From the UHGV virus genome UHGV-1350644: a DNA stretch of 41,845 bases, one strand, 5' to 3'. A model generated the notes under the pieces. That model was given only the letters and a program-made list of their open reading frames with translations. It was not told where the DNA came from and made no database searches. Positions 2 through 41,845 of this stretch are shown in pieces; within the stretch, counting starts at the first letter, position 1; every line of letters starts with the position of its first letter. The position numbers and the translations under genes are program-made. Source of the DNA: a virus.

Positions 2-166
2 GCAAAGAAAATTGCTAACCGCAAATGGGATGCCGAAAACCTAACAGCAATAACAATCCGATTGCCAAAAAAAATGGCAGTGGATTTCAAAACAAAGTGT
101 AAAAAAGATGGCATATCACAAGCGGGCATCATAAAAGAGTATATCGAAGATTTTTTAGGGAAATAA
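2..166 (+). CDS. Ribbon-helix-helix (CopG/Arc/MetJ-like) DNA-binding protein, C-terminal part. The N-terminus is at 41826..41845 if the molecule is circular.
   Basis: Open frame from position 2 with no start codon: ...ITIRLPKKMAVDFKTKCKKDGISQAGIIKEYIEDFLGK*. Beta-strand, helix, helix pattern typical of RHH proteins. Confidence 0.6.
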   Translation, partial: AKKIANRKWDAENLTAITIRLPKKMAVDFKTKCKKDGISQAGIIKEYIEDFLGK

Positions 167-227
167 CAATCCCTAAAAAATATATACACCGCTTGCAGTG
201 TATGCCAACCAAGAAAGGAATGAAAAA

Positions 228-722
228 ATGAAGTATTTTAGCAACATCAACACAATAGAAGAATTAAAGAAACAGTATTTCGCATTAGCGAAGAAATACC
301 ATTCAGACATTACCGGCGGCAGCGATGACATCATGAAGCAGATCAACGCAGAATATGCGGAGCTGCACAAAAGATATAAGGACATCCACACCAGCCACAA
401 GCCGGAACAGGAGACTTACACCGCTACAGAATCAACAAGTGAATGCCCGGAGGATTTCATCAACATCGTATCCGAACTGTTAAAAATGGGCTTGAACGTG
501 GAATTATGCGGTCGCTGGTTATGGATTAGCGGAGACACAAAGCCGCATAAAGACCAGTTGAAGGCTATCGGCTGCAAGTGGTCCGCTAAAAAAGGCATGT
601 GGTCATGGCACTACCCGGAGGACGGCAAGAGATACCACAAAAAAACAAGCAGCATAGAAGAAATCAGAGAAACATACGGCAGCGTTAGTTTCCAGTTTCA
701 ACAGCAGATGCAGTTAGCTTAA
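228..722 (+). CDS. J-domain-like protein (HPD motif replaced by HSD), with a Trp-rich C-terminal domain
   Basis: RBS aaagga sits 8 nt upstream of the ATG at 228; the track's GTG at 198 lacks an RBS. The LKKQYFALAKKYHSD...IMKQINAEYAEL pattern resembles DnaJ helix II, loop and helix III. Confidence 0.55.
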   Translation: MKYFSNINTIEELKKQYFALAKKYHSDITGGSDDIMKQINAEYAELHKRYKDIHTSHKPEQETYTATESTSECPEDFINIVSELLKMGLNVELCGRWLWISGDTKPHKDQLKAIGCKWSAKKGMWSWHYPEDGKRYHKKTSSIEEIRETYGSVSFQFQQQMQLA

Positions 723-771
723 TCAATAGCCCCGCCGGGCGGGCAAAAGCCCGGCAGGAACGGAGGAAAAC

Positions 772-1209
772 ATGTACACAACCACAAAAGACGGAGTAAC
801 AGAATACCACATGACCACATACACCTATGAACCGAAAATCTATACAACAGGAGCTGACCTATTAGCTGCCGACCGCAGAGCAGCAGAGGACATCGCACAA
901 CTAACGCATTACATAACAGCGTTGAAGCAGTACCGCAAAAGCCTTGCGGAACGCATGGAACAGCTCGCAACGATGGGATTTTATACAAAGTGTGAGCTGC
1001 GGAGGGAAAGACGCTGGCGGGACTCGAAAGTGTTCTACTACATCACAATATCAATGGTTTTCGATGATGGCACAGAGCAGATAACCGAAAGCACAAATTA
1101 CAGCGGCACAGAGCGAAACAAAGCCCTTGCAGACTATGAATCAATGCGGAAAGCAAACCCGCACTGGAAGTGCAGCAAGGATATTGAGCGAAAAGCATGG
1201 GAAAAATGA
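772..1209 (+). CDS. hypothetical protein
   Basis: ORF with a ggagg RBS, preceded by a GC-rich hairpin at 727-760. Confidence 0.5.
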   Translation: MYTTTKDGVTEYHMTTYTYEPKIYTTGADLLAADRRAAEDIAQLTHYITALKQYRKSLAERMEQLATMGFYTKCELRRERRWRDSKVFYYITISMVFDDGTEQITESTNYSGTERNKALADYESMRKANPHWKCSKDIERKAWEK

Positions 1210-1275
1210 CTTTTCGCCCCGTCTGCCGGTACAAGTCCGGCACTGATGAGCAAGAGCGAAACGGAGGTAATGAAA

Positions 1276-1428
1276 ATGAGAAAAGAAATGAACTGTTATG
1301 AAGAAAAGGAAATGCAACAACTTGAAAGAGGGTTAAAACGTGACGGTTTCAGGAAAACAGCTGATTGCATGTGGGCAAAGATTTACGAGAAAGACAACGA
1401 AATGGTCGTTTTAACTCGCGAATGGTAG
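1276..1428 (+). CDS. small hypothetical protein
   Basis: ggagg RBS 9 nt upstream of the ATG at 1276. It is the last gene before the terminator. Confidence 0.3.
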   Translation: MRKEMNCYEEKEMQQLERGLKRDGFRKTADCMWAKIYEKDNEMVVLTREW

Positions 1429-1431
1429 CGT

Positions 1432-1465
1432 TGAAAAAAGCAAGGCATAGCACCTTGCTTTTTTC
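1432..1465. terminator. Bidirectional rho-independent terminator between the converging + accessory operon and the - early operon
   Basis: gcaagg-catagca-ccttgc hairpin flanked by A6 on one side and T6 on the other. Confidence 0.65.
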
Positions 1466-1753
1466 TTATAACTCTTTTTTCAGTTCCTCAAGCCTTGCGA
1501 TCAGCCGGTCAATTTCTTCTGTGGTTTCAATCTTTACGCTTTTTCTCCCGTCCGCAAAGCCTGCTTCATACTGCTGCCGATCGTACTCCAATGCCTTTAT
1601 CAGTTCGTCTTTTTCGACATAGATGCCATATTTTCTGACAAATGAATAGACATCGTTTTCGATCTGTTCTTTTTGCTTGTCTATTCCGTCATAAATGATT
1701 CTAATTGGTGACTCATAGCCTAGTTTTTTGAACACTTCTCCTATTCTGTCCAT
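1466..1753 (-). CDS. hypothetical protein
   Basis: ORF; last gene of the early leftward operon. Confidence 0.5.
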   Translation of the reverse strand: MDRIGEVFKKLGYESPIRIIYDGIDKQKEQIENDVYSFVRKYGIYVEKDELIKALEYDRQQYEAGFADGRKSVKIETTEEIDRLIARLEELKKEL

Positions 1754-1754
1754 T

Positions 1755-2210
1755 TTATCCCCTTTCTATGACCTTGTAATCGGCGATTTCACGGAGTTTT
1801 TTTCTCAACTTGCTCAATCGGTCATAGGTTGCAGTTCTGTCGTATCCTAGCGCATTTTTGAGGTCCTCAAAGTTCTTTGTTCCCTTTTGCTGCGCTATGT
1901 ACTGAATCATCAATAGTTCGTCTGAATCTAAATCGGCAGTCAGTTTGTCATAGGCATTCAGATATTCTTGATATTCCCTGATTTCCCAGTCGATTTTTTC
2001 CCTGCGCTGCGCCCGCTGCGCGGTCGGGTCCGATATTCCGCTGCCGCGAACATGGGAATAGTCCATGCCGCCGGAATCGGCAGCAGCTTCTTTTTCTGAT
2101 TTCAGTTCTGACAACTTCCGTAAATTCTCATCGTGATCTATTAGAAACCTGTCAACATCGAAATTATAATATTTCTCTATCATGTTTTTTCTCCTCGTAT
2201 TTTTTCTCAA
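1755..2210 (-). CDS. Putative late-gene transcriptional activator (ArpU/RinA/sigma-70 region-4-like)
   Basis: C-terminal helix-turn-helix-like segment LDSDELLMIQYIAQQKGTKNFEDLKNALGYDRTATYDRLSKL. It sits at the end of the early operon just before the packaging module on the circular map. Confidence 0.4.
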   Translation of the reverse strand: MRKNTRRKNMIEKYYNFDVDRFLIDHDENLRKLSELKSEKEAAADSGGMDYSHVRGSGISDPTAQRAQRREKIDWEIREYQEYLNAYDKLTADLDSDELLMIQYIAQQKGTKNFEDLKNALGYDRTATYDRLSKLRKKLREIADYKVIERG

Positions 2211-2466
2211 ATAACTGAAACATATCAGACAAACCTTGCTCTATATCTGCAATGTCATATTCAAAATACGCAATTTTTTTCGGATAAGAAAGCGCAGCAG
2301 CCGCGCCATTTTTTTCTATGCCTATCGTTATTGTCCTTGTATGGGAATCGTCAGTAAAATGTGTCTTTATTCCTTTTTTTTCGCATTCTGATATGAAATC
2401 ATTTATCAGCTTGTAGAATCGTTCCTTTCTTTCCATGCTTTTTTCGTAAAAACCGGTTTCAATCAT
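2164..2466 (-). CDS. hypothetical protein
   Basis: ORF. Confidence 0.45.
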   Translation of the reverse strand: MIETGFYEKSMERKERFYKLINDFISECEKKGIKTHFTDDSHTRTITIGIEKNGAAAALSYPKKIAYFEYDIADIEQGLSDMFQLFEKKYEEKKHDREIL

Positions 2467-2643
2467 CTTCTCCCTCCCCCACTATAGCTTTTACGTATTC
2501 TGCTAGTTTTTCTTCATCCATATTTTTCACTCTTTCAAGCTCGTTTTGCAGTTCTTCTTCGCTTAGTATCGGTTTCAGATACATTCGTATCAACGCTGGA
2601 GCCCAAGCTCTAAGTATGAAATGTTCCAACGCATCTACCCCCT

Positions 2644-3021
2644 CTAATAATCATCCGGTTTCCTTCCTTCGTGCGTGCGCTCCACTAACTCCATAATGCA
2701 GTAGTTCGCCAGGTCCAGCAGCGTATCATCCACTGATTCGTCCTGTACATGCCTTTCTGCCCCATTCATCAGCGTTTCAAGGCGGTTCAGCTTGTCGTTC
2801 AGCCTGATTAGAATAGCATTCGGATACTTATTCCGCACCATTGCAAAACTGTCTCCATAATCGGCGTTTTTAGCCTTGTAGGTGTCGTGCAGATCCCGGC
2901 AGATTGTCCAGTGAATGCATTCTTTCTCGTCTTGGAATTCAATCCATGTATTTTTTGCTTTTTTTATCACTTCGTTAATTGCACTAACACTATCATTAAA
3001 ATCTTTTTCTGTTTCTGTCAT
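2644..3021 (-). CDS. DUF1599-like (nucleotide-modification-associated) protein
   Basis: KAKNADYGDSF...NDKLNRLETL pattern recalled from the DUF1599 family. Confidence 0.35.
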   Translation of the reverse strand: MTETEKDFNDSVSAINEVIKKAKNTWIEFQDEKECIHWTICRDLHDTYKAKNADYGDSFAMVRNKYPNAILIRLNDKLNRLETLMNGAERHVQDESVDDTLLDLANYCIMELVERTHEGRKPDDY

Positions 3022-3178
3022 TTTTGCTCTCCTTTCAACGCTTCCACTGCCATCCGGCAGGCTTCTTCTACAGCTGCCATCTTCGCTTCTTCGCCTTTGA
3101 ATCCTGCATAGTATTCTATCTCCCAGAGGGCATCCCGGGTTGTTGCCGGGTCTAGGATTTTAATTGCTTCTTCTGTTG

Positions 3179-3415
3179 TCATTGTTCCACCTCGTTATTG
3201 AGCCATTCTTCTTTGCAGGCATAGCAAGTATCTCTGCCAATGTCGTGATTTTTACAATGACATCTTTTATCACCTTCATAATAAGGGCAAGCGATATTGT
3301 AATATACCATTGCTTCATATGATGCACCGTCGTCATCACTACTTATGCGCTTGGAATCTGCTTCGTTTCCCAATCCGTCCAGCAGTAGATAGATTATGTA
3401 TGCTCTGTTTGTCAT
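3179..3415 (-). CDS. Cys-rich small protein
   Basis: ORF with CxxC and CxC clusters. Confidence 0.4.
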   Translation of the reverse strand: MTNRAYIIYLLLDGLGNEADSKRISSDDDGASYEAMVYYNIACPYYEGDKRCHCKNHDIGRDTCYACKEEWLNNEVEQ

Positions 3416-3705
3416 TCTGCCTCACTCCAATCTATGGTTTGCCCGCACACGGGACAGTTTCTGTGCCAATACGGTCTTTTGATTGCGTCCATTGCAACCT
3501 CTGCTCCGAATGAATAATCGCATTGTGGGCAAAAAGCGTTGTAAATCGTGATTTTAGGTTTTCTCGGTTCTTGAAATCCTGCCGATTCCGCACACAGTGA
3601 CAAAAATTCTATGTTTTCTGATGTTGGTCTGATCGTTACCGTGCTGCCAGATCTTAACTGATCCACGATACTTAAACCTATATCCATTGCTTCTTCATAT
3701 GTCAT
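3412..3705 (-). CDS. zinc-ribbon small protein
   Basis: CPQC...CPVC motifs. Confidence 0.45.
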   Translation of the reverse strand: MTYEEAMDIGLSIVDQLRSGSTVTIRPTSENIEFLSLCAESAGFQEPRKPKITIYNAFCPQCDYSFGAEVAMDAIKRPYWHRNCPVCGQTIDWSEAE

Positions 3706-3996
3706 TATTTCTCACCTTCCTCGCTATCAAAACAAGCATTACAATTACCATCGCAACCTATTAACTCCATATCTTCTGCATCAATATCGTCGCACCACAT
3801 ATTCAGTATTTCGCACCAGTTCATTCCTGCTCACCTCCATTATTATTTAAAAAATCAAAAAACGCATTTGAGCATTCTTTACAAAAATAAAGATCCCACA
3901 ATTTTCCATAACCTTTTTCAGATACTTCTATATGTTTCCAGTCTTTTCTTGTTTCGTAATCAACAGTATTTTTTCTGCATCTATCACATACTATCA

Positions 3997-4764
3997 TCAT
4001 TTCTGATCGCCATCCTTTGCAAATGGATCATATTCACTTGATGCTGCTTCTTCAATTCTCTTTTTTGCTATCTCAAAATAGCCTTCATCAAGTTCCATAC
4101 CTATAAAATTTCTGTTTGTGTTCACACAGGCAACCCCTGTGCTGCCGCTACCCATGCAGTTGTCAAGCACCGTGTCCCCATCGTTTGTGTATGTCTTAAT
4201 CAACCATTCCAAAAGAGCAATAGGTTTTTGTGTCGGATGCAATGCTTCTTTTTGTGTGTCCTTCGCAAATATCACGATTGATTTTGGATATCGCTCTGTA
4301 CTATCGTAACTTGTAAGTCCGAATAATCCGTAATTGGTCGTTTCTTTGCAATTTCGCTTGTGCGCCGCTTTTGACACTTTTCTTTTATGTCCAGTAGTTT
4401 TTTGTGGGTTATATGTCGGCAGAGACTTGTAAAATACGCAGATATCCTCATGTGTGCGAAGTGGCATCTTCTTTGCGTTCAAGAACCCTGACGGTTGTGT
4501 TTTCTCCCAAATAAGATTATATCGCCACAAACTGCAATTACTTTTCATTAAATCAGCAGTGAACATACCGTTTGCAAACAATATAATTGCACCATTGTCT
4601 TTAATCGCTCGTTCATATTGACACCATAATGGTTCAAACGGGATTACAGAATCCCACTTGTTTCTTGTAGATCCGTACGGTAAATCGCATAGAATCATGT
4701 CAATACTGCCATCTGGAATGTTTTTCATTAGCTCAAGGCAATCACCTTGTTGTAATTCAATCAT
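3997..4764 (-). CDS. Orphan DNA methyltransferase, beta-class N6A/N4C family (motif IV reads DLPY)
   Basis: N-terminal GDCLELMKNIPDGSIDMILCDLPYG, then HPTQKP and a VLDNCMGSGSTG motif I. This is the typical N6_N4_Mtase order (IV before I). Confidence 0.75.
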   Translation of the reverse strand: MIELQQGDCLELMKNIPDGSIDMILCDLPYGSTRNKWDSVIPFEPLWCQYERAIKDNGAIILFANGMFTADLMKSNCSLWRYNLIWEKTQPSGFLNAKKMPLRTHEDICVFYKSLPTYNPQKTTGHKRKVSKAAHKRNCKETTNYGLFGLTSYDSTERYPKSIVIFAKDTQKEALHPTQKPIALLEWLIKTYTNDGDTVLDNCMGSGSTGVACVNTNRNFIGMELDEGYFEIAKKRIEEAASSEYDPFAKDGDQK

Positions 4765-4767
4765 GCT

Positions 4768-5040
4768 TTATTCCTTTCTCATTTCGCTTTGCAACGATTT
4801 TATGGCTGACCTTAGGTTACTGAATTCTTCCTCAATCAATTCTTCCGGGCTGTCGTAATAAAGCTCGCTACCATATGTGTAATATTCTGTAATTTCGTTT
4901 GCTTTCCCATCTTTTTTAAGTTCCCAGTACAAATCATACAGATCTCCACCATAGTTATCATGCTCCATTGACAAATCTTCTTCACAGTATATCTTGCCTT
5001 TATATTCATAAATCTTTTCTTCTGTCATTACTCTCTCCAA
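4768..5040 (-). CDS. hypothetical protein
   Basis: ORF. Confidence 0.45.
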   Translation of the reverse strand: MERVMTEEKIYEYKGKIYCEEDLSMEHDNYGGDLYDLYWELKKDGKANEITEYYTYGSELYYDSPEELIEEEFSNLRSAIKSLQSEMRKE

Positions 5041-5270
5041 TCATCATAAATTTCAATGAATACATCTTCCGCAGATTTTGTTACAACAATTCCTTTTGCT
5101 TCTATGCTCGCTATATCGACAATATCCTGCAAACTATTAATTTCTATTGTTGCAGAAGCAAGTCCGCACTTTTCATCATGAATTTTCAAATTGAAAGGAT
5201 CCAAAAGTCCTTGAAAATCTTGTAAATTAAGTTTTCCCCAGCTGCTTGTATTGCTAATCTTAACAATCAT
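5028..5270 (-). CDS. hypothetical protein
   Basis: ORF. Confidence 0.4.
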   Translation of the reverse strand: MIVKISNTSSWGKLNLQDFQGLLDPFNLKIHDEKCGLASATIEINSLQDIVDIASIEAKGIVVTKSAEDVFIEIYDDWRE

Positions 5271-5272
5271 TC

Positions 5273-5641
5273 CTACTCACGCTCCTTTACTTCCTCGATG
5301 TCTACCACCTTGAAACAAGTCGGTTGCAAGTCGTTTTCATTGATAAAATCAATGACAAATTTTTCGTATTTACGGGCAAATTTTTTCATTAGGTCTTTAG
5401 GAATTTCCCAACTTTCAGACACTTCGCCAACCTCTTCATGTAATTTTTCGCCCAATTCATATTCGATATCCGGAATCAAAATATCCTGTTTGTCAAATTC
5501 TATATGAACCTTTCTACCGATATATCCACATCCGTATTCTTTTCTGACTTCTTCAATGGCTTCTTCTCTGCTATAGTACCCATCAGTGAACCATTCGCCA
5601 TTGTCACTGATGCACCATCCACTCGTCTCTATGTGTTTCAT
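5273..5641 (-). CDS. hypothetical protein
   Basis: ORF. Confidence 0.45.
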   Translation of the reverse strand: MKHIETSGWCISDNGEWFTDGYYSREEAIEEVRKEYGCGYIGRKVHIEFDKQDILIPDIEYELGEKLHEEVGEVSESWEIPKDLMKKFARKYEKFVIDFINENDLQPTCFKVVDIEEVKERE

Positions 5642-5776
5642 TCCTTTTCACTCTCCTTTACTTCATCTTCGATACGCAATAATTCATCGCAAAACTTGAT
5701 AACTTCTCCTAATGGAACCATTGTGATATCAGTCTCATCCTCATGGAAACGTTCATATAATGCTGTTTTTAAATAA

Positions 5777-6139
5777 TCAATATCCATCGTTTACCTCCGT
5801 ATTCCAACATTCCATGCAATTTTCGTTGCACTGTTCTTCTGGTATCATTCCAAGTTCAACACAACAAGAACGTGGAGACCCGTCTTTGCAAATTTCTGCT
5901 TTCGGGAATTTCTCAAACAAAATATCTTTCCTAGTTTTTCGCGGGTGTTCTTCAGCCCATTTTCGAACGATTTCGGTAGCTTCAACAGGGTGTTCCGCTT
6001 CAAAGTCATAGCAAGTGCAGCTTAATTTATTTTGTAAATATAATGGACAATTTTGACAAAGTACACCAGCACACTTTCCATAAGTTCTTCCCAAACTATT
6101 TAACATTCTTGTTTTTTCAACTAAATAATTAAATTCCAT
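5777..6139 (-). CDS. Cys-rich hypothetical protein
   Basis: 14 Cys in 120 aa. Confidence 0.45.
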   Translation of the reverse strand: MEFNYLVEKTRMLNSLGRTYGKCAGVLCQNCPLYLQNKLSCTCYDFEAEHPVEATEIVRKWAEEHPRKTRKDILFEKFPKAEICKDGSPRSCCVELGMIPEEQCNENCMECWNTEVNDGY

Positions 6140-6533
6140 CGTTTACCTCCGCTAATTTTGCATAGTTCCAGCTCTTCCAGTCATCATAGGCAGTCCATGA
6201 TGTTTGTCCACCGGCAAAGGCATAAACTCTACCGTTCTCATAATGCGAAAAATACCTGCGTGACCATTCTTTCCGTTCTAAATCTTTTACCAAAATCGGA
6301 GTGTCAATTGGAACTTTTGTCCAATCAAATTCCGGCTCGATGCACTCGGCAGCAGCCCATGCCAGAGCAAGTTCATCACAAGTTTTTTTATTAGAATAGG
6401 CATAAAATAAACAGTCGCCACATCTCATGCCCCCGCAAGCACAAATTATATTTGTTGCTCTTTCAACGGCAACCTTTCTTCCCATTCTTGTAATCGGCTC
6501 GATTTCTGCTCTGTGTTTTTCGTAATTAGTCAT
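6129..6533 (-). CDS. hypothetical protein
   Basis: ORF. Confidence 0.45.
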   Translation of the reverse strand: MTNYEKHRAEIEPITRMGRKVAVERATNIICACGGMRCGDCLFYAYSNKKTCDELALAWAAAECIEPEFDWTKVPIDTPILVKDLERKEWSRRYFSHYENGRVYAFAGGQTSWTAYDDWKSWNYAKLAEVNDGI

Positions 6534-6587
6534 TTACTTGCACCTCCCATGGTTCTTCATCTTCCCATTTAATGAAGTTTTTCATCA

Positions 6588-7466
6588 TTACACCTCAATT
6601 CCTGTAATCTCCTTGAATACTTCGGCATCAAAATTCGGAATTTCCTGCACAATTTTCTTATTCTCTTCCGACATTTTCTCCCACCAATTAGTCCATGCTT
6701 CTTGCATTGTGTATTCCTTCAGGTAACCTCCGATCATTTCTTTTTCTGGGTCAGCTTTCTTCTCTTTTTCTGTGTACAGAATCCATTCTGTCAACACAAA
6801 CGGGGCACTGCATAATGCCACATAATACTTGCTTCTGTAGAAATCTTGCAGGCTCATTCCGGATGGTCGATTGAATATTCTAATATTCATATCCGGCTCG
6901 GTGCAAAATACACCGTTAGACCCATCTATCGTGTTCCCATACCCGGTGTTCCTGTCCCCGGTGTTCCAGTCCCCGGTGTTCTTGTCCCCGGTGTTCCCAT
7001 ACCCGGTGTTCCTGTCCCCGGTGTTCTTGTCCCCGGTGTTCTTGTCCCCGGTGTTCTTGTCCCCGGTGTTCCCATGCCCGGTGTTACAGTCCCCGGTGTT
7101 GAACACTCCGGTGTTCCCGTTAACCATGCCTTTCATTGCTTTCAGTTCCTCTCCGACTATCTCACGAACAATCTTAATATGGTCGCTCCCGCATTTCTGA
7201 CCATCGGTCACTTCTTCCCCCAAAACTTCGATTTCGAAGAATCTGTTCAGTTCCTTGTCATTACAAGAATAATGTTCATGTACTTTTCGCAGGCTGTCGC
7301 AGTAATGAAAAACAGTATCACTGCACAATTCCAACGGCTTTCCGTCATGCTCTATCTTATACTCCTTGCCGATTTCGAATTGAAATCCTCTGCATTTCAT
7401 ATCCTTATCCATTCCTTTAATTTTCATTTCTTTTCTCCTTTCCATCTCTGACCGCACAGCGGACAA
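6588..7466 (-). CDS. Pentapeptide-repeat protein (NTGDK/NTGDR/NTGYG, 12 repeats) with N- and C-terminal globular parts
   Basis: A 15-bp tandem DNA repeat at 6939-7118 encodes NTGxx units in frame. Confidence 0.6.
   Translation of the reverse strand: MSAVRSEMERRKEMKIKGMDKDMKCRGFQFEIGKEYKIEHDGKPLELCSDTVFHYCDSLRKVHEHYSCNDKELNRFFEIEVLGEEVTDGQKCGSDHIKIVREIVGEELKAMKGMVNGNTGVFNTGDCNTGHGNTGDKNTGDKNTGDKNTGDRNTGYGNTGDKNTGDWNTGDRNTGYGNTIDGSNGVFCTEPDMNIRIFNRPSGMSLQDFYRSKYYVALCSAPFVLTEWILYTEKEKKADPEKEMIGGYLKEYTMQEAWTNWWEKMSEENKKIVQEIPNFDAEVFKEITGIEV
6939..7118. repeat. 12 tandem 15-bp repeats (consensus gtccccggtgttctt) inside a CDS
   Basis: Read directly: (a/g)t(a/c)cccggtgttcNN units, nearly perfect. 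Confidence 0.9.
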
Positions 7467-8647: not shown

Positions 8648-8658
8648 TTTTCGCCCTC

Positions 8659-16784: not shown

Positions 16785-17867
16785 ATGGATTACATCAGAA
16801 AAACATTTACCTTTGAGGGTAAACGGTACGCTGTCAGGGGGAAAACCGAAAAAGAAGCCATTATAAATATGGCAAATAAGATTCGTGACCTGGAAGAGGG
16901 AAAAGTGGTTGTGTCCGGAAATATGATGGTAAAAGACTGGACGGAAAAATGTATTGCCACATACAAAACAGGGCAAAGCGAAATAACAAGAAAAAAGTAT
17001 GTATCACGTATTAATTACTGTATTCTCCGTCATATCGGAAATAGACCCCTTAAATCAATCAAGCCTATAGATTGTCAATCAGTTCTTGCTTATCAAGAGG
17101 GCAATTCGCAATATCAAATCAACCAAGTGTATCAAGCATTACGCTTTATTTTCAGAACGGCAAAAGAAAATAAATTGATTCCAAACGACCCCACAGAGGG
17201 GCTAATGAAAAGCAAGAACGGAACAAAGAACGAAAGACGCTCCATGACAAAAGAAGAGGAAGAATGTTTTCTTACTGTTAACAGCAATCCACGATTCATG
17301 GTATTCAATTTGATGTATTACTGCGGACTTAGACCATCAGAAGCACGAGAAGTCATGAGAACGGATATTGCAAAAATTAAAGAGGATAACCTTGAATATA
17401 ATGTGCTGCACGTCAGAGGAACGAAAACAGGAAATGCAGACAGAAATGTGCCGATACCGGATGAATTGTTTTCTCTCATACAAGCCAATCCATCTCTTAC
17501 TTATATTGCACCGAATCAGAACGGAAATAAGCATGATGAGAAAAGTTTTCAGCGTGCATTTAATTCACTGCGAAGAGAGATGAACATTCAAATGGGATGC
17601 CGTACTTACAGAAACCAATTAATACCGCCTTATCCTTTAGCTGATGATTTTGTGCCATATTGTCTCCGGCATACATATTGTACCAATTTATGCAGAAAAA
17701 AGGTGGATATACGCATAGCAAAGTATCTTATGGGGCATGCAGATATACGCATAACTGCGAATATATATACACATGTTGACAATTCAGACGTGACCGAAGC
17801 GGCAAAATTAATTTCACAGGGTGTGACACAAGGTGTGACACTAACAGCTGTAACCATTGAAAAATAG
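16785..17867 (+). CDS. int: tyrosine integrase
   Basis: Catalytic R...K...HxxR...H...Y pattern (LRPSEAREV; HVRGTKTGNADRNVPI; LRHTYCTNL; LMGHADIRITANIYTHV). Confidence 0.9.
   Translation: MDYIRKTFTFEGKRYAVRGKTEKEAIINMANKIRDLEEGKVVVSGNMMVKDWTEKCIATYKTGQSEITRKKYVSRINYCILRHIGNRPLKSIKPIDCQSVLAYQEGNSQYQINQVYQALRFIFRTAKENKLIPNDPTEGLMKSKNGTKNERRSMTKEEEECFLTVNSNPRFMVFNLMYYCGLRPSEAREVMRTDIAKIKEDNLEYNVLHVRGTKTGNADRNVPIPDELFSLIQANPSLTYIAPNQNGNKHDEKSFQRAFNSLRREMNIQMGCRTYRNQLIPPYPLADDFVPYCLRHTYCTNLCRKKVDIRIAKYLMGHADIRITANIYTHVDNSDVTEAAKLISQGVTQGVTLTAVTIEK
17820..17841 (+). repeat. attP left-arm direct repeats GGTGTGACAC, two copies
   Basis: ggtgtgacacaaggtgtgacac overlapping the int 3' end. Confidence 0.5.
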
Positions 17868-17877
17868 CCATTTTTCT

Positions 17878-17927
17878 TCGCACTACGAATGCGAAGGTTG
17901 AGGGTTCGAGTCCCCCATGGCGCACCA
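17878..17927 (+). other. attP core: 3' half of tRNA-Arg(ACG), anticodon stem-loop through CCA, with no 5' half
   Basis: tcgca-ctACGaa-tgcga anticodon arm, GGTTCGAGTCC T-loop, atggcgc-a-cca 3' end. The upstream sequence is not tRNA-like. Confidence 0.65.
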
Positions 17928-17934
17928 ACTTATA

Positions 17935-18032: not shown

Positions 18033-18071
18033 GGTGTGACACTAGGTGTGACACTTTTTGCTGTGTCACAC
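18033..18071 (+). repeat. attP right-arm repeats: GGTGTGACAC twice, plus one inverted copy GTGTCACAC
   Basis: ggtgtgacactaggtgtgacac ... gtgtcacac. Confidence 0.5.
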
Positions 18072-18116
18072 TTTACGGTACTAAAATCTCAAAAAGAATA
18101 TTTATTCAAAAACAAA

Positions 18117-18277: not shown

Positions 18278-18715
18278 TCAAGACATGAAATATTTTGCGA
18301 CTTTATATTTCTTTCCGTCCTCGTCCTGGATAAAATCTCTTGCGATGCTGTAATAAAACTCTGCATCTTCTGCCATACCGACCATTACTGCGGTATTATG
18401 GTAATCATTATATGCCATATTCATTGTCATATACCATTCGCAAAGTTTATCTGATATACCTTTATTTCTTAAAAAATCTTTGACTGTATCGAAAGACCAT
18501 TTTTCTCCGTATGGACGCATTTCACGCACGATCTCTTTTGCTTTCTCCGGTGCTATTTTATATGCAACTTCTCCAAGTTTTTCCATTACGCAAGAATAAT
18601 AGGATGGGTCATAAGCTTTTAACTTTTCCATAGCTTCATCCACTGCGTAATGTACAAAATCCCAATCAGGGTCATTCCTTTTGGCTATAAGATTAATCAA
18701 TCCCATGTATTCCAT
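18278..18715 (-). CDS. Moron gene E: helical cytoplasmic protein, unknown function
   Basis: ORF between the late terminator and attP. Confidence 0.45.
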   Translation of the reverse strand: MEYMGLINLIAKRNDPDWDFVHYAVDEAMEKLKAYDPSYYSCVMEKLGEVAYKIAPEKAKEIVREMRPYGEKWSFDTVKDFLRNKGISDKLCEWYMTMNMAYNDYHNTAVMVGMAEDAEFYYSIARDFIQDEDGKKYKVAKYFMS

Positions 18716-34440: not shown

Positions 34441-34441
34441 G

Positions 34442-34795: not shown

Positions 34796-34807
34796 TGTCT
34801 ACACCTC

Positions 34808-35635
34808 CTATACCCATTTTCCTACAATCATTTCTTTTGGTCTTGCAATGATACCATCGTACAGGATAAATCCTTTTACTGCATCAGAGAAAAGCTGCTG
34901 CGGTCTGTACGGCTCGATGTGAGTCATCGGGTTAACGAATGCGATTGCTCTATTCGTTTTGAGCTGTACCATGTAGTTTCCGGAAGAATCCTTTGCACAG
35001 TTATTAGATTCTTTGATTGTGATACCGTTATATCTTCCAACAACACCATTTTTCAGCATTGCGGAGTTATCGGTATCAAGGTGTGTGTATGCCTGCTTTA
35101 ACAGCATTACATGCTTCGGTGGAAGTGTAAGCGTGATGTTAGAATTTCTCTTAACATCGTTTTCCAGAAGTCTTACAAGCATGCTGTCGATTGTTTCAAG
35201 GATATTATCCTTTGTGATTGTTGTTGCAGCAGAGTTGAAAACTACAGCCTGTTTGTCTAAGGACATATTTGCAATAAACTGGTCCATATCATTTGCAAGC
35301 CCTTCCGATGTTTCTTTCGCTAATGCTTCCATGATACCGCCAACAGCCTGTCTCTTGTCAATATCATCAACTTTATAGTTGAAGTAGGACACCTGATTGA
35401 TATTCAGAGTGATGGACTGATCTGCAACATCTTCTGCATCTCCCAGCTTAATCTTTTTGCCGATCTGCTTTGTAATTGTTGGCTTGCCTACACCAAGGAT
35501 TCTTACGGAGTCGCCCTTCTGCTTTACATCGCCCTCATACTGTCTGTTTGTATCGGCTACAAACACTGTTTCTCTTTCTAAGTCTCTGTTAATAGATTCC
35601 GCCCACACTGTCGGAATAAAATTCTGATATGCCAT
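34808..35635 (-). CDS. major capsid protein
   Basis: Follows the scaffold gene. The N-terminal 'NFIPTVWAESI' region is capsid-like. Confidence 0.6.
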   Translation of the reverse strand: MAYQNFIPTVWAESINRDLERETVFVADTNRQYEGDVKQKGDSVRILGVGKPTITKQIGKKIKLGDAEDVADQSITLNINQVSYFNYKVDDIDKRQAVGGIMEALAKETSEGLANDMDQFIANMSLDKQAVVFNSAATTITKDNILETIDSMLVRLLENDVKRNSNITLTLPPKHVMLLKQAYTHLDTDNSAMLKNGVVGRYNGITIKESNNCAKDSSGNYMVQLKTNRAIAFVNPMTHIEPYRPQQLFSDAVKGFILYDGIIARPKEMIVGKWV

Positions 35636-35649
35636 TTGTTATTTCTCCT

Positions 35650-36357
35650 TTACCATTTGGTCATTGATTTACGGATAAGATCAAAATTCTTGCTTACTTC
35701 TTCCTGTGACATTGCAGCAACCTCTTCACGAGTGAAATAATCGGTTTCAGGCTTTGTGCTTGTTGCGACTGCCCCGACAACTGGGGGTTTCTTGGGTGTT
35801 GTATTGCCCTTATAAGCAAGCATCATCTGATAAGCTTGCTCTGCCCCCATTTCTCCCATTGGGTTGAATCTGAATGCCAAGTATTCCTGCCCTAATTCAT
35901 CAATGGACTTTACTTCCGGATGTAACTTCTGAATTTCTGCTAAATCCGCATTCATTTGTGCTTGCGCTTGCTGTTCTACAAGCTGCTGTTTAAGTTCTTC
36001 GTTTTCCGCTTGCATCGTTTCAAGCTGTGACTGCATCTGCTGTTCAGCTCTGACCTCTTCAAGCGGTCTTTGAGATGCATAAGCCTGTGCCTGTAATGAT
36101 TTATCCTCGCCATCAAAAAACAGCCCTAAGGCATCCTCATACTCCTTGGACTGCTTCTGTGCTTCGGCTAACTGCCGTGCAAGATCTTCATTTTGTCTGC
36201 GCATCTGCGCAAAAGCGGCATCCTGCTCTGTTTTGCCCGTTTCAGCGACCTCCGGGGTTTCTTCGCTTGAAGTTTCCACTTCATTGTCCGGTTCGGCGAC
36301 TTCCGGCACTTCTGCGCCTACATCCTCTAATTGAGAATCTAAAGTTTCAAAATCCAT
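35650..36357 (-). CDS. scaffolding protein
   Basis: Acidic, Q/E-rich coiled-coil; lies between portal and capsid. Confidence 0.55.
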   Translation of the reverse strand: MDFETLDSQLEDVGAEVPEVAEPDNEVETSSEETPEVAETGKTEQDAAFAQMRRQNEDLARQLAEAQKQSKEYEDALGLFFDGEDKSLQAQAYASQRPLEEVRAEQQMQSQLETMQAENEELKQQLVEQQAQAQMNADLAEIQKLHPEVKSIDELGQEYLAFRFNPMGEMGAEQAYQMMLAYKGNTTPKKPPVVGAVATSTKPETDYFTREEVAAMSQEEVSKNFDLIRKSMTKW

Positions 36358-36377
36358 TCTGTATCTCCTTTAATTTA

Positions 36378-38048
36378 TTAAAAAACAGCCGGTTGTTCGG
36401 CTGTTTCTTGACCTGTATATTGTTGCTGTGCAATCTGTATTGCTTCTTCTTGCGGTATGCCTTGCGACATTAATTGTTCTACAATTTCAGCAAGCTGTGC
36501 ATTGCTTTCTTCTTGCTGATTCTGCATTGCTTGACGTTTTGCCAGTACCGCATTTAATTTTCCGACCGGAACAGAACTATTTGCTGGCGCAAGCTCTGCG
36601 TATTCCTCTAAGGATAGTTGTCCTCGGTCAAACATATTATCAAGCCATTGCTGTTCAGAAAGTTTTGTCCACTGGTTATCCTGTGATACATCAATTCTTA
36701 CAGTCGGCTTCAATCTTTGTAATTCTTCTTGGGAAATGAACATCTGCTCATCTTCGCCCATATCGTTCGTTCTTGTAATCGTGATGCCCTCCGGATTGTA
36801 TGCTACCCACATATCAAACCAAAGCATAGCTACATCTTCGACATACTGCTTATAACGTGCTACATTTTCATTCAATGTTACCTGTGACGAGTCTCGAACT
36901 GCTATAATTGCCTGTCCGGATGCTTGTTCCGGATTGACATTACCAAGCGCATAATCGCTTGCACCTACTAAATCTTTGGTCATTTGCAGTAAATCATCTT
37001 GCAAATACTTCGCATCACTAGAAATATTCGTTGCATTTAGATACGCTATCTGCTGCGATATGGATTGCGCTCCACCGCCATTTACTTCGATTGGCTTTCC
37101 TACTGTCTCTAAATCTTCCGGATTTACTACTGTGCTTGCATCATACGCAAGTCTTGGAAAAGCGCTCGTTCTTACAGTGATTGCACGTCTTGCAATGGTT
37201 TTATTAATTTCAAGCTGATTCGGAATCAGCTGCGCTACTTCCGCAACACCTCTTGCGTTATACGGGACCGGTCTCCATACCATTGAACAGATAGGATATG
37301 ATTTTAAGCCTGTTATATCCCCCTGTATTGGATGAATTGGTTCATATACGCACTGCTGTGTTGATCGTCCAACATGCACTACACCATCACGCTTTGTCAT
37401 GTACAGAAGCGAAGTAACCTTATTGGAAACTTCGTCTTTATTCATAATGACTCCGTTATCCCCATTAGAATTGGAGTCTCCGACAATTAAATCTCTTTCT
37501 TTCTTTGGAATGCCATTATCCTTTGCAATCTGTCTGACTTCATCCACGCTTCGTCTTTCTCTGATGATAATAAACGGCTGGTCTTGTATCTCTGTTATAT
37601 TTTCATCTCCAAGAAGCACGGATGTGTTCGGTAATACTTTAGGTGGAATATCGGTCCTATCCGTCTCCCACATGGTATAAGCATCTCCTTGAATAGCAGC
37701 AGACTTGATCACATCCCATGTTTTGGAGTCCATTTTGGACTTCTCCCAGTTCTTTGAAAAGTTTTGGTTCAGTAGTCCATAAATTTCCTGTAATTCGGCT
37801 GAGTTCGTAACATCAGAATACTTTGCTGTCATTGCATTCTGCGATACAACAGAGGTTTTATAGTCTACAATCTGTTGAATAATGTTAAGCACTGGCAGTT
37901 CTTCCCCGCCAGTATTGCATCCTACCCACTGATTTCCGATATAGAAGTTCCAGTTTCGTTCTGTCTTACTGACTAACTGCTTTTTTTGGATGTAATCTTT
38001 GCATTTTTCGTACTTACTCCAAATTTTGGTATAATTCTTATCTATCAC
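36378..38048 (-). CDS. portal protein
   Basis: 556 aa, directly downstream of TerL. Confidence 0.55.
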   Translation of the reverse strand: MIDKNYTKIWSKYEKCKDYIQKKQLVSKTERNWNFYIGNQWVGCNTGGEELPVLNIIQQIVDYKTSVVSQNAMTAKYSDVTNSAELQEIYGLLNQNFSKNWEKSKMDSKTWDVIKSAAIQGDAYTMWETDRTDIPPKVLPNTSVLLGDENITEIQDQPFIIIRERRSVDEVRQIAKDNGIPKKERDLIVGDSNSNGDNGVIMNKDEVSNKVTSLLYMTKRDGVVHVGRSTQQCVYEPIHPIQGDITGLKSYPICSMVWRPVPYNARGVAEVAQLIPNQLEINKTIARRAITVRTSAFPRLAYDASTVVNPEDLETVGKPIEVNGGGAQSISQQIAYLNATNISSDAKYLQDDLLQMTKDLVGASDYALGNVNPEQASGQAIIAVRDSSQVTLNENVARYKQYVEDVAMLWFDMWVAYNPEGITITRTNDMGEDEQMFISQEELQRLKPTVRIDVSQDNQWTKLSEQQWLDNMFDRGQLSLEEYAELAPANSSVPVGKLNAVLAKRQAMQNQQEESNAQLAEIVEQLMSQGIPQEEAIQIAQQQYTGQETAEQPAVF

Positions 38049-38303
38049 TTACAAAATCTCCTTTTGTCCGGTACTATCTCCATGATAGTTTTCAATATTT
38101 TGTAAAATAAGCTGCTGTCTGCGTATTTTCGCTTCGTTTACCGACTCTTTTTTTCGTCTTTCAATAGCTTTTTTAGGGCTTTCAACCTTGATTTCCGGCT
38201 TTCTGACCTCTTTCGCACCAATGTTATAGCCCTTTATAAAACAAAAGATGCCTAAAATCGGCATCATGACGGATAATATTAAGATTGTGATGTTAGATAA
38301 CAT
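38049..38303 (-). CDS. Small membrane protein between TerL and portal
   Basis: Two hydrophobic segments; overlaps the TerL stop. Confidence 0.35.
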   Translation of the reverse strand: MLSNITILILSVMMPILGIFCFIKGYNIGAKEVRKPEIKVESPKKAIERRKKESVNEAKIRRQQLILQNIENYHGDSTGQKEIL

Positions 38304-39756
38304 GGATTTTATCTCCCTTATCGAATTTTTTACCTTTTTTCTTCTTCAAGCCGGGGAAATTCCGCTCTAAAAAGCTTTCTTCCTTGACTTTTAGCACTTT
38401 TGCATTCGAATAAATGAATTTATTCAGCATTTGAGACATGCAGTCTACTTGGTCATCATGTTTACCATTTGGAAACGATGCGCACTCTTCTACAAAATCC
38501 CCTGTAAAGGGTTTATTCTTCGGTAAGAAGCAGTTTCCGCTTTCAATCGTACCAACTACCGCATTAACACGGGAAACTTTACCGCCATCCGGATTGACTG
38601 AAATAATTCCCGGAATATGTGTTCTCAAATATTTAATAATTGCAGAACCATTCGCCTTATCTTCAATATAAGTGGTCTTACATTTTGGATACATGCCCCT
38701 CAAGCGAGTAATTTCCCTTATCGTTGACGGCATATCTAAATGTTTTTTCACTGCATCTATCAAATACATATCCGGACCCGTCTTGCCCCATACCTGTATT
38801 GCTACAAAGTCATTATCGTCTCCATCTTTGAACGTGGCATCCACGCTCATTCCCCAAGTAACAATGCTTGGAAGTGTTTCGTAATACTGCCACCATTCAC
38901 GTTTTATCAGATTGCCCTCAAGCCCTGTCGGATGCCCTTGGAAAAGTGCATTCCATGCACGTGATCCGCTGACGCTCATATATGACTTCTTGAAGTCGGC
39001 AAGCCAAGTATTATCCTTGCCAATCTCCGGGCAAAGTGCTTCGCCTACTTTACGTCCTAAAATATCATCCGGCTCTGCTTCCAGTGGAATATTGACCACT
39101 TTCACATTCTCTTCGGTTTCAAGCATCCTTCCTGCCAAATCGTCCTCATGCCAGCGTGTCATAATCACAATGACTTTCGCTCCGGCATAAAGTCTTGTCT
39201 TAAAGGACGATAGCCATTCATCAAATGCCCTATTACGATAGCTTTCAGAGTCAGCTTCTTGCTGTGTTTTAACCGGGTCATCAATAATCATAAGGTCGCA
39301 TCTTCGTCCAGTTACACCGGACATTAAACCACGACTGACCATGCCACCGGTATGCCCCTCTAATTCAAATTCAGTCGCATTTGCCGGGCTTCCAATTTTA
39401 ACCCCGAAAATATGACCGAACTCTTTTATCTTTGACAAGTTTCTTCTACCGAATTTCTGTGCAAAATCTTCCGAATAGGATATTTCAATCACTGACTTAT
39501 CCGGATTTCTCCCAAGATACCAACTTGGCAGCGTTTCCGTTACTGTAACAGACTTACCATGCTGTGGCGGTGTCGAGATTATCAAAATATCATACGCATG
39601 ACCAGTATCAGCTTCTAAAAAATCTTGCACTGTATCACACAAAAAACGATGAAATTTACTGACTTTATAGCCTTTATTGGTATGTTTTACATAAGCAAAA
39701 TAATCCGTCCTTAAAACGTCATTATAGAGCTTTAAAACATTATCCATTCTTGCCAC
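38293..39756 (-). CDS. terL: terminase large subunit
   Basis: Walker A STPPQHGKS, Walker B DLMIIDD, nuclease TRWHEDD. Confidence 0.85.
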   Translation of the reverse strand: MARMDNVLKLYNDVLRTDYFAYVKHTNKGYKVSKFHRFLCDTVQDFLEADTGHAYDILIISTPPQHGKSVTVTETLPSWYLGRNPDKSVIEISYSEDFAQKFGRRNLSKIKEFGHIFGVKIGSPANATEFELEGHTGGMVSRGLMSGVTGRRCDLMIIDDPVKTQQEADSESYRNRAFDEWLSSFKTRLYAGAKVIVIMTRWHEDDLAGRMLETEENVKVVNIPLEAEPDDILGRKVGEALCPEIGKDNTWLADFKKSYMSVSGSRAWNALFQGHPTGLEGNLIKREWWQYYETLPSIVTWGMSVDATFKDGDDNDFVAIQVWGKTGPDMYLIDAVKKHLDMPSTIREITRLRGMYPKCKTTYIEDKANGSAIIKYLRTHIPGIISVNPDGGKVSRVNAVVGTIESGNCFLPKNKPFTGDFVEECASFPNGKHDDQVDCMSQMLNKFIYSNAKVLKVKEESFLERNFPGLKKKKGKKFDKGDKIHVI

Positions 39757-40456
39757 CCTCTAACAGTTTCGGTCTTGTATAGCCAAGTTCTTTCAGATTT
39801 TCTTCCGCTTCCTTTACGCTTGCATTATCTTCGACTTTCACAACTCTATCTTCTCTCTTATCTGCCCAGTCACATAAATTCTTTAACGTAAAAATCGCAC
39901 TAGATGTATTATATGCGCCTACCAAGGCACCATCCGAAAGCAAGTCACTTAGCATGGACTTATATTCGCTTTCCTGTGACGGACTCATATTCGCCAAGTG
40001 TTCCCTCATAGATCTCCGAGAAATCCCAAGCCACAAGGCTAAATTCGTCACATTCGGCACAATCGGCATCATGCCAGGTTCGCCATCCGGTCTTGTGAAC
40101 TTTTTCATAAAATTATGATTTCTGATATATGCACAAAACCCCTCAAAGGCGGTCAATATCTCTTCGCAATTCTCAAATATCTTTGCATGATAATTTGGAG
40201 TCATATCCTCTCTCATAGAGTAAATATAGCCCCACATTTCCTTTGCTTCTTTCGTTAAGTCCTTATCCGCTAAGTTTAGTGGATTCGGTCTTGGTTGCTC
40301 ATATTGCTTATATAGCTGCTCTGCTCTGCGTATTGCTTTCTTTGCATACGCTTCTTTATTCTTGTCCTTTATCTGTGGTCTGACGTGAGGTACGAATGGT
40401 TTTGCTACTATCTCATCATTCCTTGGTCTACCTCTACTTCTCTTTTCTTCTTCCAT
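39740..40456 (-). CDS. terS: terminase small subunit (HTH-containing)
   Basis: Upstream of TerL and overlapping it; N-terminal GRPRN plus an HTH; RBS ggaaaggagag. Confidence 0.55.
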   Translation of the reverse strand: MEEEKRSRGRPRNDEIVAKPFVPHVRPQIKDKNKEAYAKKAIRRAEQLYKQYEQPRPNPLNLADKDLTKEAKEMWGYIYSMREDMTPNYHAKIFENCEEILTAFEGFCAYIRNHNFMKKFTRPDGEPGMMPIVPNVTNLALWLGISRRSMREHLANMSPSQESEYKSMLSDLLSDGALVGAYNTSSAIFTLKNLCDWADKREDRVVKVEDNASVKEAEENLKELGYTRPKLLEGGKNG

Positions 40457-40486
40457 GTTCTCTCCTTTCCAGTTAATTTATGTAAA

Positions 40487-40508
40487 TTATGTAATGAACA
40501 TTACATAA
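40487..40508. promoter_or_regulatory. Perfect 10-bp inverted repeat 30-50 nt upstream of the terS start (candidate late-activator operator or pac/cos element)
   Basis: ttatgtaatg-aa-cattacataa. Confidence 0.4.
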
Positions 40509-41360
40509 ACTTTATTTCAGTAAATTATTTCTTGGTATTCCACCTGTGAACAAAGTTGACTTTCGCTCATTTTATACTGGAAATTTTTTATAATTTTGGA
40601 AATTGAGCTTCTTTCGACTAGTGGGGGTGTTTACGATGTGGGGGAGAGGTGTAAGTACTCTGTATAGGGGGCTTGCTCGCGCGAGTGGGTGCGTTTACGA
40701 TGCACCCTCTTCGGGTCGGCTGCCATCCTCCGGCATACTATATATAGTGGTCGAGCCGGTCAAAGGAAAAAATTATTGCGGGATATAATGCTATGGTATA
40801 GGCTGCACACCAGTAACCGCAATGGTTGTAGGCTTTTCTGCTTGCTTGCTTAACTATTCCGTAAATTATGATTTAGGGAATAGTTGAATGGTTATAAAAA
40901 AAGAAGCCGACAGTTTTTGTCGGCGGTACATCTATGAGAGCCCGTTCCCCCCTCTTGATTCTGCATTCATTATCTACTATTTTATGCGAAAAAAGTCTGA
41001 GCTGAAAAAAGCATTCTGAATAAATACAGTTTTGTATTGCCGTTACTATGGGGTAATGAGTGATAACTATGCTATATCCCGCCCCGATCGGCTGCCCTAC
41101 CTATATATGCCCCGATGCAATGCCCTATAGGCTGATATGGTATCTGATTATATAAGAATCGTTGAGCATTTCCCCCGAACGAAAAAATCCGGCTGCATTA
41201 TTTCCCACTAATAATACATACCGGATCATTTCCCCCGCCCCGCAGGGATACCGAAAGGAGGATGAAAAAAATGTAGAAAATCAACTATCCACACTATTAT
41301 TATAACACATTTCTAAAAATCCGCATCCGCGGAAAGTCCGCATTTTTCAATAGTTTCAGA

Positions 41361-41429
41361 GGTTTTTGAAAAAAAGTTTGAAAAAGTTTTGAAAAAGGTG
41401 TTGACATACACCGCTTGCGGTGCTATGCT
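41361..41429 (+). promoter_or_regulatory. Promoter with upstream A-tract repeats and an operator-like palindrome (TTGACA-17-TATGCT; caccgcttgcggtg)
   Basis: (gttt)ttgaaaaa three times, then ttgacatacaccgcttgcggtgctatgct. Confidence 0.5.
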
Positions 41430-41481
41430 ATAGCCACAACGAAAAATCGGAACGGCAAGAGCCGAGCGAAAGGAGAAAAAA

Positions 41482-41769
41482 ATGAAAGCAGAATTATATT
41501 ATATTCAGTCAATAGAAAATGGTTCAGTAGCATGGGAAGCATGGACGGCAGCTGAACCAGTCAGCAATCAGTACGTGAATCAAGATGTGCTAAAAACAAG
41601 AGAAGTTGAACTTCCGAAAGGTTGGAGTGTAGGATATACCCCGAACGAAGTAAGAGGTATTTTTGATAACAATAACAGAGCTGTTAAAATCAAAGGCGGA
41701 TACAACAGCGCAATATATGCCCTTTCCGGAGAAAGCGAAGAAAGAATTTATCTTAGAAAGGCAAAATAA
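41482..41769 (+). CDS. hypothetical protein (first gene of the accessory operon)
   Basis: Strong RBS aaaggag. Confidence 0.55.
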   Translation: MKAELYYIQSIENGSVAWEAWTAAEPVSNQYVNQDVLKTREVELPKGWSVGYTPNEVRGIFDNNNRAVKIKGGYNSAIYALSGESEERIYLRKAK

Positions 41770-41825
41770 ATGGGCAAGACATCACGAAGCGGACAAAACA
41801 ATCAAAACATATCAGGAGCATAAAA

Positions 41826-41845
41826 ATGGCACAGAAATATACGGA
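41826..41845 (+). CDS. 5' end of the RHH gene (MAQKYT...), continuing at position 2 if circular
   Basis: RBS caggag 7 nt upstream of the ATG at 41826; in frame with the ORF at 2..166 across the junction. Confidence 0.5.

Follow-up and report, generated by a model that had tools for sequence, protein, structure and literature searches.

The 41,845-bp virus genome UHGV-1350644 (hereafter the window, i.e., the whole stretch of DNA that was analyzed) is the fourth arbitrary cut of a circular metagenomic assembly, from which a 55-nt overlap has been removed, and it represents the complete genome of a temperate phage. The cut divides a small gene between the two ends of the window. This gene encodes a protein of 61 amino acids (aa) belonging to the ribbon–helix–helix (RHH) type of DNA-binding regulators. 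Base 41845 physically precedes base 1, and the cut lies 20 nt inside a gene that is real and intact. The joint explanation offered here, in which a circular assembly was cut within the RHH gene, the RHH protein would act at two candidate operators, and the virion DNA would be packaged by the headful mechanism, is very likely to be correct.

The last 20 nt of the window (ATGGCACAGAAATATACGGA) comprise six codons followed by GA, the 3′ end reading ...caggagcataaaaATGGCACAGAAATATACGGA. The 5′ end starts with AGCAAAGAAA..., and the first 166 nt, read in the frame of position 2, lack a start codon. When the ends are joined, base 1 (A) finishes the codon GAA (E7) and base 2 begins GCA (A8), resulting in a 186-nt open reading frame (ORF; 41826–41845 plus 1–166), whose stop codon ends at 166 and whose stop-free translation is MAQKYTEAKKIANRKWDAENLTAITIRLPKKMAVDFKTKCKKDGISQAGIIKEYIEDFLGK* (61 aa). 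A first-pass annotation, made from the letters of the window only, had proposed that the two end fragments are in frame and yield this product, and had placed a caggag ribosome-binding site ahead of an ATG at 41826, with the window ending 20 nt into the ORF. Direct reading confirmed both signals, and the joined translation is exactly the sequence that had been proposed. No terminal direct repeat was found in the window itself.

Circular closure of the assembly

An exact-sequence look-up of the 95-aa protein encoded just before the 3′ end of the window led to the first two source records, and a later look-up added the third. There are thus three public records with identical sequence: ENA ERZ1749038 NODE_221_length_41900 (also present in NCBI), JGI 3300045988 Ga0495776_001425, and ENA ERZ28622489 OBRE15-1_SAMN03283294 scaffold_245. 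Each is 41,900 bp long (41,900 − 55 = 41,845), and an exact 55-nt terminal direct repeat is present in all three, at a different position of the circle in each (Table 1). Because the repeats lie at three different positions, the same circle has been cut publicly at three other places. The repeats and their positions had been predicted from coordinate maps before the record ends were fetched, and all predictions were confirmed. All fetched pieces of the records are identical to the window. The junction itself is crossed in a 20-kb piece of NODE_221 (L024), in which window positions 31482–41845, followed by 1–9924, form one unbroken alignment of 19,924 nt at 100% identity, and in which the 61-aa gene is called across the junction (L024 10345–10530). 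Thus, the ends of the window are circularly closed, as had been proposed, and the terminal overlap that the first-pass annotation had suggested looking for before trimming is present, with a length of 55 nt, in three 41,900-bp public records.

The length of 55 nt is the size of a common assembler k-mer. Contigs with direct terminal repeats are the standard criterion for a “complete circular genome” among metagenomic viruses, and exact repeats of this kind reflect the behavior of the assembler SPAdes. The assembly described here resembles other circular (direct-terminal-repeat) viral contigs from k-mer assemblers in having the same exact repeat of k-mer length (55 nt) and arbitrary breakpoints that differ between records; it does not differ from them beyond the window's own cut happening to lie in a gene.

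Related contigs have the gene in one piece. Full-length homologs of the 61-aa protein occur at 95–97% identity, and 12 related contigs, derived from other samples and other assemblers, hold the RHH gene internally and intact (75–95% identity). These include IMG/VR uncultivated virus genomes (42,087 and 41,299 bp) as well as contigs from ENA and Logan, the longest of 41,667 bp; the near-complete contigs span 39.6–42.1 kb. In the 12 relatives, the genes for the small-terminase-like (TerS-like) protein, the large terminase (TerL) and the portal protein are on the left of the RHH gene, and homologs of the genes at the 5′ end of the window are on its right; BLAST high-scoring segment pairs cross the window junction at 91–96% identity. 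For the closest relative (L018/L022), identity is 95% across 9.4 kb to the left of the junction and 92% across the 1.3-kb stretch that spans it. A megablast search of GenBank phages with the 2-kb junction-spanning sequence gave no match, so at the DNA level there is no close relative among described phages. Similarly, the exact 60-nt junction pattern was not found in the searched copy of IMG/VR, which therefore lacks this exact genome, although relatives were found there by a protein-based search.

Some considerations limit how far the circle can be taken literally. The three records are identical in sequence and probably derive from one read set (SAMN03283294), which makes them reproducible assemblies rather than independent samples. 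The evidence for closure consists of assembled sequences rather than reads, and holds for the assembly only. Moreover, a circular assembly graph fits a true circle, a permuted headful genome, or a linear genome with direct terminal repeats of at least 55 nt.

Among these forms, the most probable one for the virion DNA is a linear molecule that is circularly permuted, with terminal redundancy, i.e., one packaged by the headful mechanism, and not a permanent circle. The nearest cultured relatives of its TerL are those of the Bacillus phages Page and Pascal (47–48% identity). For Page, a circularly permuted genome has been reported, along with homology of its TerL to the terminases of pac-type headful packagers (PMC3990757). 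It is because these closest cultured relatives are pac-type headful packagers that headful, permuted virion DNA is proposed. The assembled circle would then reflect headful-packaged permuted DNA and/or a circular replicative or excised form.

The same evidence bears on the alternative of a linear genome with fixed ends, in which short direct terminal repeats (T7-like or other) were collapsed by the assembler and the physical end lies elsewhere. Any terminal repeat longer than the k-mer yields a circular graph, and an ORF-poor region of ~945 nt beside the small-terminase-like gene (40457–41400) could carry packaging signals or ends. However, TerL is of the Terminase_6 type, with the pac-type, circularly permuted relatives just described, and the small-terminase-like protein weakly matches gp3 of P22; fixed ends are improbable.

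The phage also invites a wider comparison with the Bacillus megaterium podophages Page, Pascal and Pony, which have the closest cultured large terminases. Their genomes are of similar size (~40 kb) and the G+C content is alike (40.7% in Page, 40.9% in the window), but there is no nucleotide-level similarity. In addition, the phage described here is temperate (integrase, phage attachment site attP, CI/Cro-like pair), and there is a weak hint that its host is a gut Lachnospiraceae bacterium.

The ORF-poor gap (40457–41400) lies between the small-terminase-like gene and the promoter of the cassette that includes the RHH gene. It contains several short repeats: three similar to CATTTCCCCCG; the pair AGTGGGGGTGTTTACGATG / AGTGGGTGCGTTTACGATG at 40620–40638 and 40684–40702; and two of the form GCCCCGAT...GCCCTA. 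A gap of similar length is present in the relatives, its sequence being kept only in the closest one (95%). A pac site, an origin or an unrecognized RNA could lie in the gap; an Rfam scan of the whole window and of this 1-kb non-coding gap gave no family match.

The 61-residue protein and its candidate operators

Membership of the 61-aa protein in the RHH superfamily is well supported by its family profile and its predicted fold; placement in one subfamily (Arc, CopG antitoxin, RepB-RCR_reg or ParG) is not supported. The closest named matches of the protein are the PHROG “Arc-like repressor” families (best 3.9e-5), and a single-sequence search of the PDB with it returned nothing. A homolog of 61% identity (P0004) scores 27.4 bits on the Pfam family RHH_1, above the cut-off of 20.5 bits. 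An exhaustive search, with the 95%-identical protein P0002 as the query in place of the joined protein, yielded 70 relatives. Among 48 aligned relatives, 14 match RHH_1 (E<1e-3), seven match RHH_5 and seven match ParG. When the profile of this 48-member family was compared with solved structures, the best matches were AvtR (3.8e-8), ParG (5.6e-6) and VapB26 (1.3e-5), with weaker matches to other solved RHH proteins, namely Mnt, PutA, Arc, omega and CopG.

The AlphaFold2 model of the protein (predicted local distance difference test score, pLDDT, 91) has a helix at residues 7–20 (pLDDT 93), an extended segment at 21–29, and helices at 30–43 and 47–58. It superposes on CopG, Arc and VapB26 at 2.2–2.5 Å over ~40 residues, and its nearest PDB neighbors in Foldseek are ParG (top), VapB26, CopG and Arc. 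A family-wide motif, EAxKxANxKWDxxN, is present at the N-terminus, with KWDxxN conserved in the additional N-terminal helix; G44, in the turn between the two following helices, is nearly invariant, and the protein stops three residues past helix 2. The first-pass annotation had recognized the strand–helix–helix layout of CopG/Arc repressors in the joined protein, with which the family profile and the model agree, apart from adding a helix at the N-terminus. Its suggested search of RHH families with the joined protein had a divided outcome: the homolog and the family profile match, whereas the protein alone reaches 18.1 bits on RHH_1 (E 0.0025), below the gathering threshold.

The proteins of the ParG/omega/AvtR type, which give the best profile matches to solved structures, can be compared further. 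ParG and omega also have a segment N-terminal to the ribbon. In the phage protein, however, this segment is predicted to be a confident helix with a conserved motif of its own, and there is neither a partition ATPase (ParF) nor a plasmid context. A separate candidate, a plasmid replication regulator of the RepB-RCR_reg family (PF10723), was rejected, with scores of 12.9–13 bits against a cut-off of 21 bits and with the context of a phage instead of a rolling-circle plasmid; the PF10723 labels carried by homologs are precomputed weak matches.

The RHH gene is part of a plus-strand cassette (41482 to ~1428) located between two long minus-strand blocks, one with early/replication genes and the other with packaging/late genes. 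By its sequence, the cassette promoter is of a strong sigma-70 type; it is preceded by an A/T-rich tract and is kept in all relatives. A palindrome of 15–16 bp occurs in only two copies in the window: ACACCGCTTGCGGTGC in the spacer of this promoter (candidate operator 1) and ACACCGCTTGCAGTGT after the RHH gene (candidate operator 2). The spacer copy is present in 13/13 loci checked, even though the neighboring genes differ, and 12 of the 13 have the second copy at the same distance, +205, relative to the ATG. Between the two, a 12-bp perfect inverted repeat (ATTTTTTAGGGA/TCCCTAAAAAAT) spans the RHH stop codon.

A more distant locus, L044 (Logan SRR32508930_37482, 3940–4220), allows the protein and the palindromes to be compared together. 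Its RHH homolog is 61% identical and follows the promoter without an intervening gene, yet the layout matches: a TTGACA-17-TATAGT promoter, a hairpin at the stop codon and, 18 nt past that codon, a second site. Both sites of L044 are ACACTATGCACAGTGT, i.e., an identical 16-mer in opposite orientations. Compared with the sites in the window, the outer ACAC...GTGT is unchanged, and the inner 8 bp differ in both sites together; the ribbon residues differ as well (TAITIRL in the window, IRISFGL in L044). Of the evidence at hand, this co-variation speaks most strongly for recognition of the sites (e.g. ACACCGCTTGCGGTG) by the RHH protein. The comparison rests on L044; the loci of more distant RHH homologs (L003–L013), in which the motif and the promoter were not found, were left out of it. 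As an aside, the paired sites of L044 amount to a natural specificity swap of possible experimental use.

Several points weigh against this view of the protein and its sites. The score of the protein itself on RHH_1 is below threshold, as mentioned above. In the model of the monomer, DSSP gives no strand, which is attributed to the ribbon forming only in the dimer, and the matches to RHH structures in Foldseek do not reach significance (E at least 1), for a model of only 61 residues. The second palindrome lacks a recognizable −35 or −10 element, and another factor could bind the palindromes.

In the proposed mechanism, dimers of the RHH protein would bind the two candidate palindromes. Binding would repress the cassette promoter, i.e., the gene would be autoregulated, as by Arc at Pant in Salmonella phage P22, and the second site would serve to control read-through or the expression of downstream cargo. 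Judged from the sequences, the chances that the protein combines Arc-like autorepression at the promoter with control of cargo at the second site are about even. Like the Arc protein of the P22 immI region, it is a small RHH protein encoded in the operon it would control, and its candidate operator likewise lies between the −35 and −10 elements of a predicted strong promoter, a likeness of position only. The differences are that the sequence similarity to Arc is marginal (E 0.099), that the conserved N-terminal helix (KWDxxN) is extra, and that there is a second candidate operator after the gene, with no downstream antirepressor and no divergent Mnt-like gene. The downstream 164-aa and 145-aa proteins gave no match to an antirepressor (Ant, KilA-N or Bro), and the cassette neighbors gave no match to a toxin or defence family (Pfam, PADLOC). 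Because there is no recognizable antirepressor, toxin or defence gene, the cassette is not assigned to a P22-type immI module or to a toxin–antitoxin system.

The RHH protein could also be the antitoxin of a type II toxin–antitoxin system, or a regulator of plasmid copy number or partition (CopG, RepB-RCR_reg, ParG), rather than an Arc-like repressor. Weak matches to CopG_antitoxin, RepB-RCR_reg and ParG, the PF10723 label on homologs, the presence of VapB26 and ParG among the best solved-structure matches, and the position of the gene ahead of other small genes would all fit such a role. It is nevertheless quite unlikely: for the protein itself these matches are below the curated cut-offs; in the predicted model the chain stops just past helix 2 and lacks a C-terminal toxin-binding tail; genes for plasmid replication or partition are absent; and the downstream genes, besides matching no toxin or defence family, vary while the RHH gene stays, unlike a co-evolving toxin–antitoxin pair.

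The slots on both sides of the RHH gene (41482–41769 and 772–1428; loci L014–L023) hold unrelated genes across the relatives. In the upstream slot, there is a gene for a protein of 76, 78, 95, 103 or 192 aa; in the downstream slot, there are genes for proteins of 65+69 aa, of 70+70+450 aa (with a faint AP2 match), or of 164+145 aa. By sequence comparison, the position flanking the RHH gene is thus marked as a hotspot of gene exchange. The N-terminus of the 164-aa cargo protein is J-domain-like, with HSD replacing HPD, and its match to Pfam DnaJ is weak (E 0.021, 15.3 bits, below the cut-off).

A more tentative and rather doubtful extension of the proposed regulation is that the RHH gene and its two palindromes constitute a control unit conserved among these gut phages at the boundary of early and late genes, a self-repressed “moron dock” that exchanges unrelated cargo. 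Cargo would be swapped upstream (absent, or 76–192 aa) and downstream (65–450 aa), the specificity of the operators would co-evolve with the ribbon residues, and the cargo, including the J-domain-like protein, might act in lysogens.

Gene content and integration site

The hallmark genes are present in single copy in the window: TerL, portal protein, major head protein, tyrosine integrase, r1t-type holin and M15 peptidase (endolysin). A collagen-like tail fiber is likewise encoded once. Other genes encode a CI-like/Cro-like pair of helix-turn-helix proteins, a single-stranded DNA-binding protein (SSB), a YqaJ exonuclease, a DnaD-like helicase loader, NinB, an HNH endonuclease and a methyltransferase. 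The remaining family matches are all to phage families, and many small ORFs are without annotation. No host genes were seen among the annotated genes and no tRNA genes were found in the window. This agrees with the earlier description of one full set of phage modules without host genes.

Two other genes merit mention. A 1,577-aa protein with MuF_C and LPD38 (polyvalent-protein) domains is encoded between the tail and lysis genes (21699–26432, minus strand), and could belong to the ejected or internal proteins of the virion. A pentapeptide-repeat protein (DUF7666 + Pentapeptide_2) is encoded at 6588–7427 (minus strand), with 15-nt tandem repeats at 6931–7118; the 55-nt terminal overlap of scaffold_245 (6946–7000) falls within this repeat array.

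A fragment resembling the 3′ part of a tRNA-Arg(ACG) gene directly follows the stop codon of the integrase gene and is flanked by repeats of GGTGTGACAC. A search for this repeat gave seven matches, a number reached in 0/100 shuffles. The region 17820–18072 suggests integration into a tRNA-Arg gene, with the GGTGTGACAC repeats as candidate integrase arm sites. A single attP had been noted before, and one attP-like site, with a tRNA-like core between these repeats, is indeed what follows the single integrase gene. Scanning a genome collection with the integrase returned one 39.7-kb relative contig, binned with a metagenome-assembled genome (MAG) of Wujia chipingensis, plus distant integrases; it returned no integrated copy, host junction or bacterial attachment site (attB). 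The W. chipingensis contig is regarded as unintegrated because it is collinear across attP. From its binning comes the weak hint, mentioned above, that the likely host is a gut Lachnospiraceae bacterium.

These data leave next to no probability for the window being a fragment of bacterial chromosome (one integrated prophage or two tandem partial prophages) with a coincidental in-frame join: although the integrase and the attP-like site imply that the phage has to occur integrated somewhere, such a copy would be bounded by attL/attR near the integrase (~17.9 kb) and not by a point within the RHH gene, neither host genes nor duplicated modules were found, the sole genome-collection relative is also unintegrated, and the reading is refuted by the public contigs that cross the junction at 100% identity and have their terminal overlaps elsewhere. 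The tandem arrangement, already rejected in the first-pass annotation, is excluded by a self-BLAST of the window, which gave intragenic repeats only and no large duplication.

Table 1. Positions of the features discussed in the text (window coordinates; L024 coordinates where indicated)
Feature	Position	Strand	Basis or remark
RHH gene, first 20 nt (ATG...GA)	41826..41845	+	read directly; contiguous with base 1 in L024
RHH gene, remaining 166 nt including TAA stop	1..166	+	61-aa gene called across junction in source contig
caggag ribosome-binding site, 7 nt 5′ of ATG	41813..41818	+	read directly
55 nt at both ends of ENA ERZ1749038 NODE_221_length_41900	18356..18410		fetched ends
55 nt at both ends of JGI 3300045988 Ga0495776_001425 (41,900 bp)	40521..40575		fetched ends
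55 nt at both ends of ENA ERZ28622489 scaffold_245 (41,900 bp)	6946..7000		fetched ends
Cassette promoter TTGACA-17-TATGCT, TG before −10	41401..41429	+	best site, 10/12 matches; L024 9920–9948
Palindrome ACACCGCTTGCGGTGC in promoter spacer, candidate operator 1	41408..41423		motif search; co-varying equivalent in L044
Second palindrome copy ACACCGCTTGCAGTGT, candidate operator 2	186..201		19 nt past RHH stop, before next gene
12-bp perfect inverted repeat ATTTTTTAGGGA/TCCCTAAAAAAT spanning RHH stop	150..181		L024 10514–10545; kept in L044
95-aa gene, first cassette gene, no assigned function	41482..41769	+	slot variable (76–192 aa) or absent in relatives
164-aa cargo gene	228..722	+	C-terminal half of PHROG 15863 matched (1.2e-40; family without known function)
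145-aa cargo gene	772..1209	+	no family match
Large terminase (Terminase_6N/6C), single copy	38293..39747	-	family matches
Small-terminase-like gene, 238 aa, divergent from cassette	39740..40456	-	weak GP3_package match (E 5.5e-4, below cut-off); adjoins TerL
Portal protein, single copy	36378..38048	-	family matches
Major head protein, single copy	34808..35635	-	phrog_267, 1.1e-34
Tyrosine integrase, single copy	16785..17867	+	PF00589
tRNA-Arg(ACG)-like 3′ fragment, candidate attP core	17854..17929	+	Rfam tRNA 23.8 bits, E 0.005, below gathering score
Two GGTGTGACAC repeats left of core, candidate integrase arm sites	17820..17841	+	repeat search
Two direct GGTGTGACAC repeats (18033–18054) and inverted copy (18063–18072), candidate arm sites	18033..18072		repeat search

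The split RHH gene is a real but ordinary outcome of where the circle was cut, and the RHH protein adds to a very well-known kind. In practice, the 41,845-bp window may be handled as the complete genome of a temperate phage; the sequence should be rotated before annotation, as the RHH gene could otherwise be lost or called as two fragments. Current knowledge is unchallenged, as circular assemblies by k-mer overlap and small phage RHH regulators are both routine. The biological point is a modest one: a testable pairing of a regulator with its candidate operator (two co-varying palindromes), with variable cargo around it, in uncultured gut phages.

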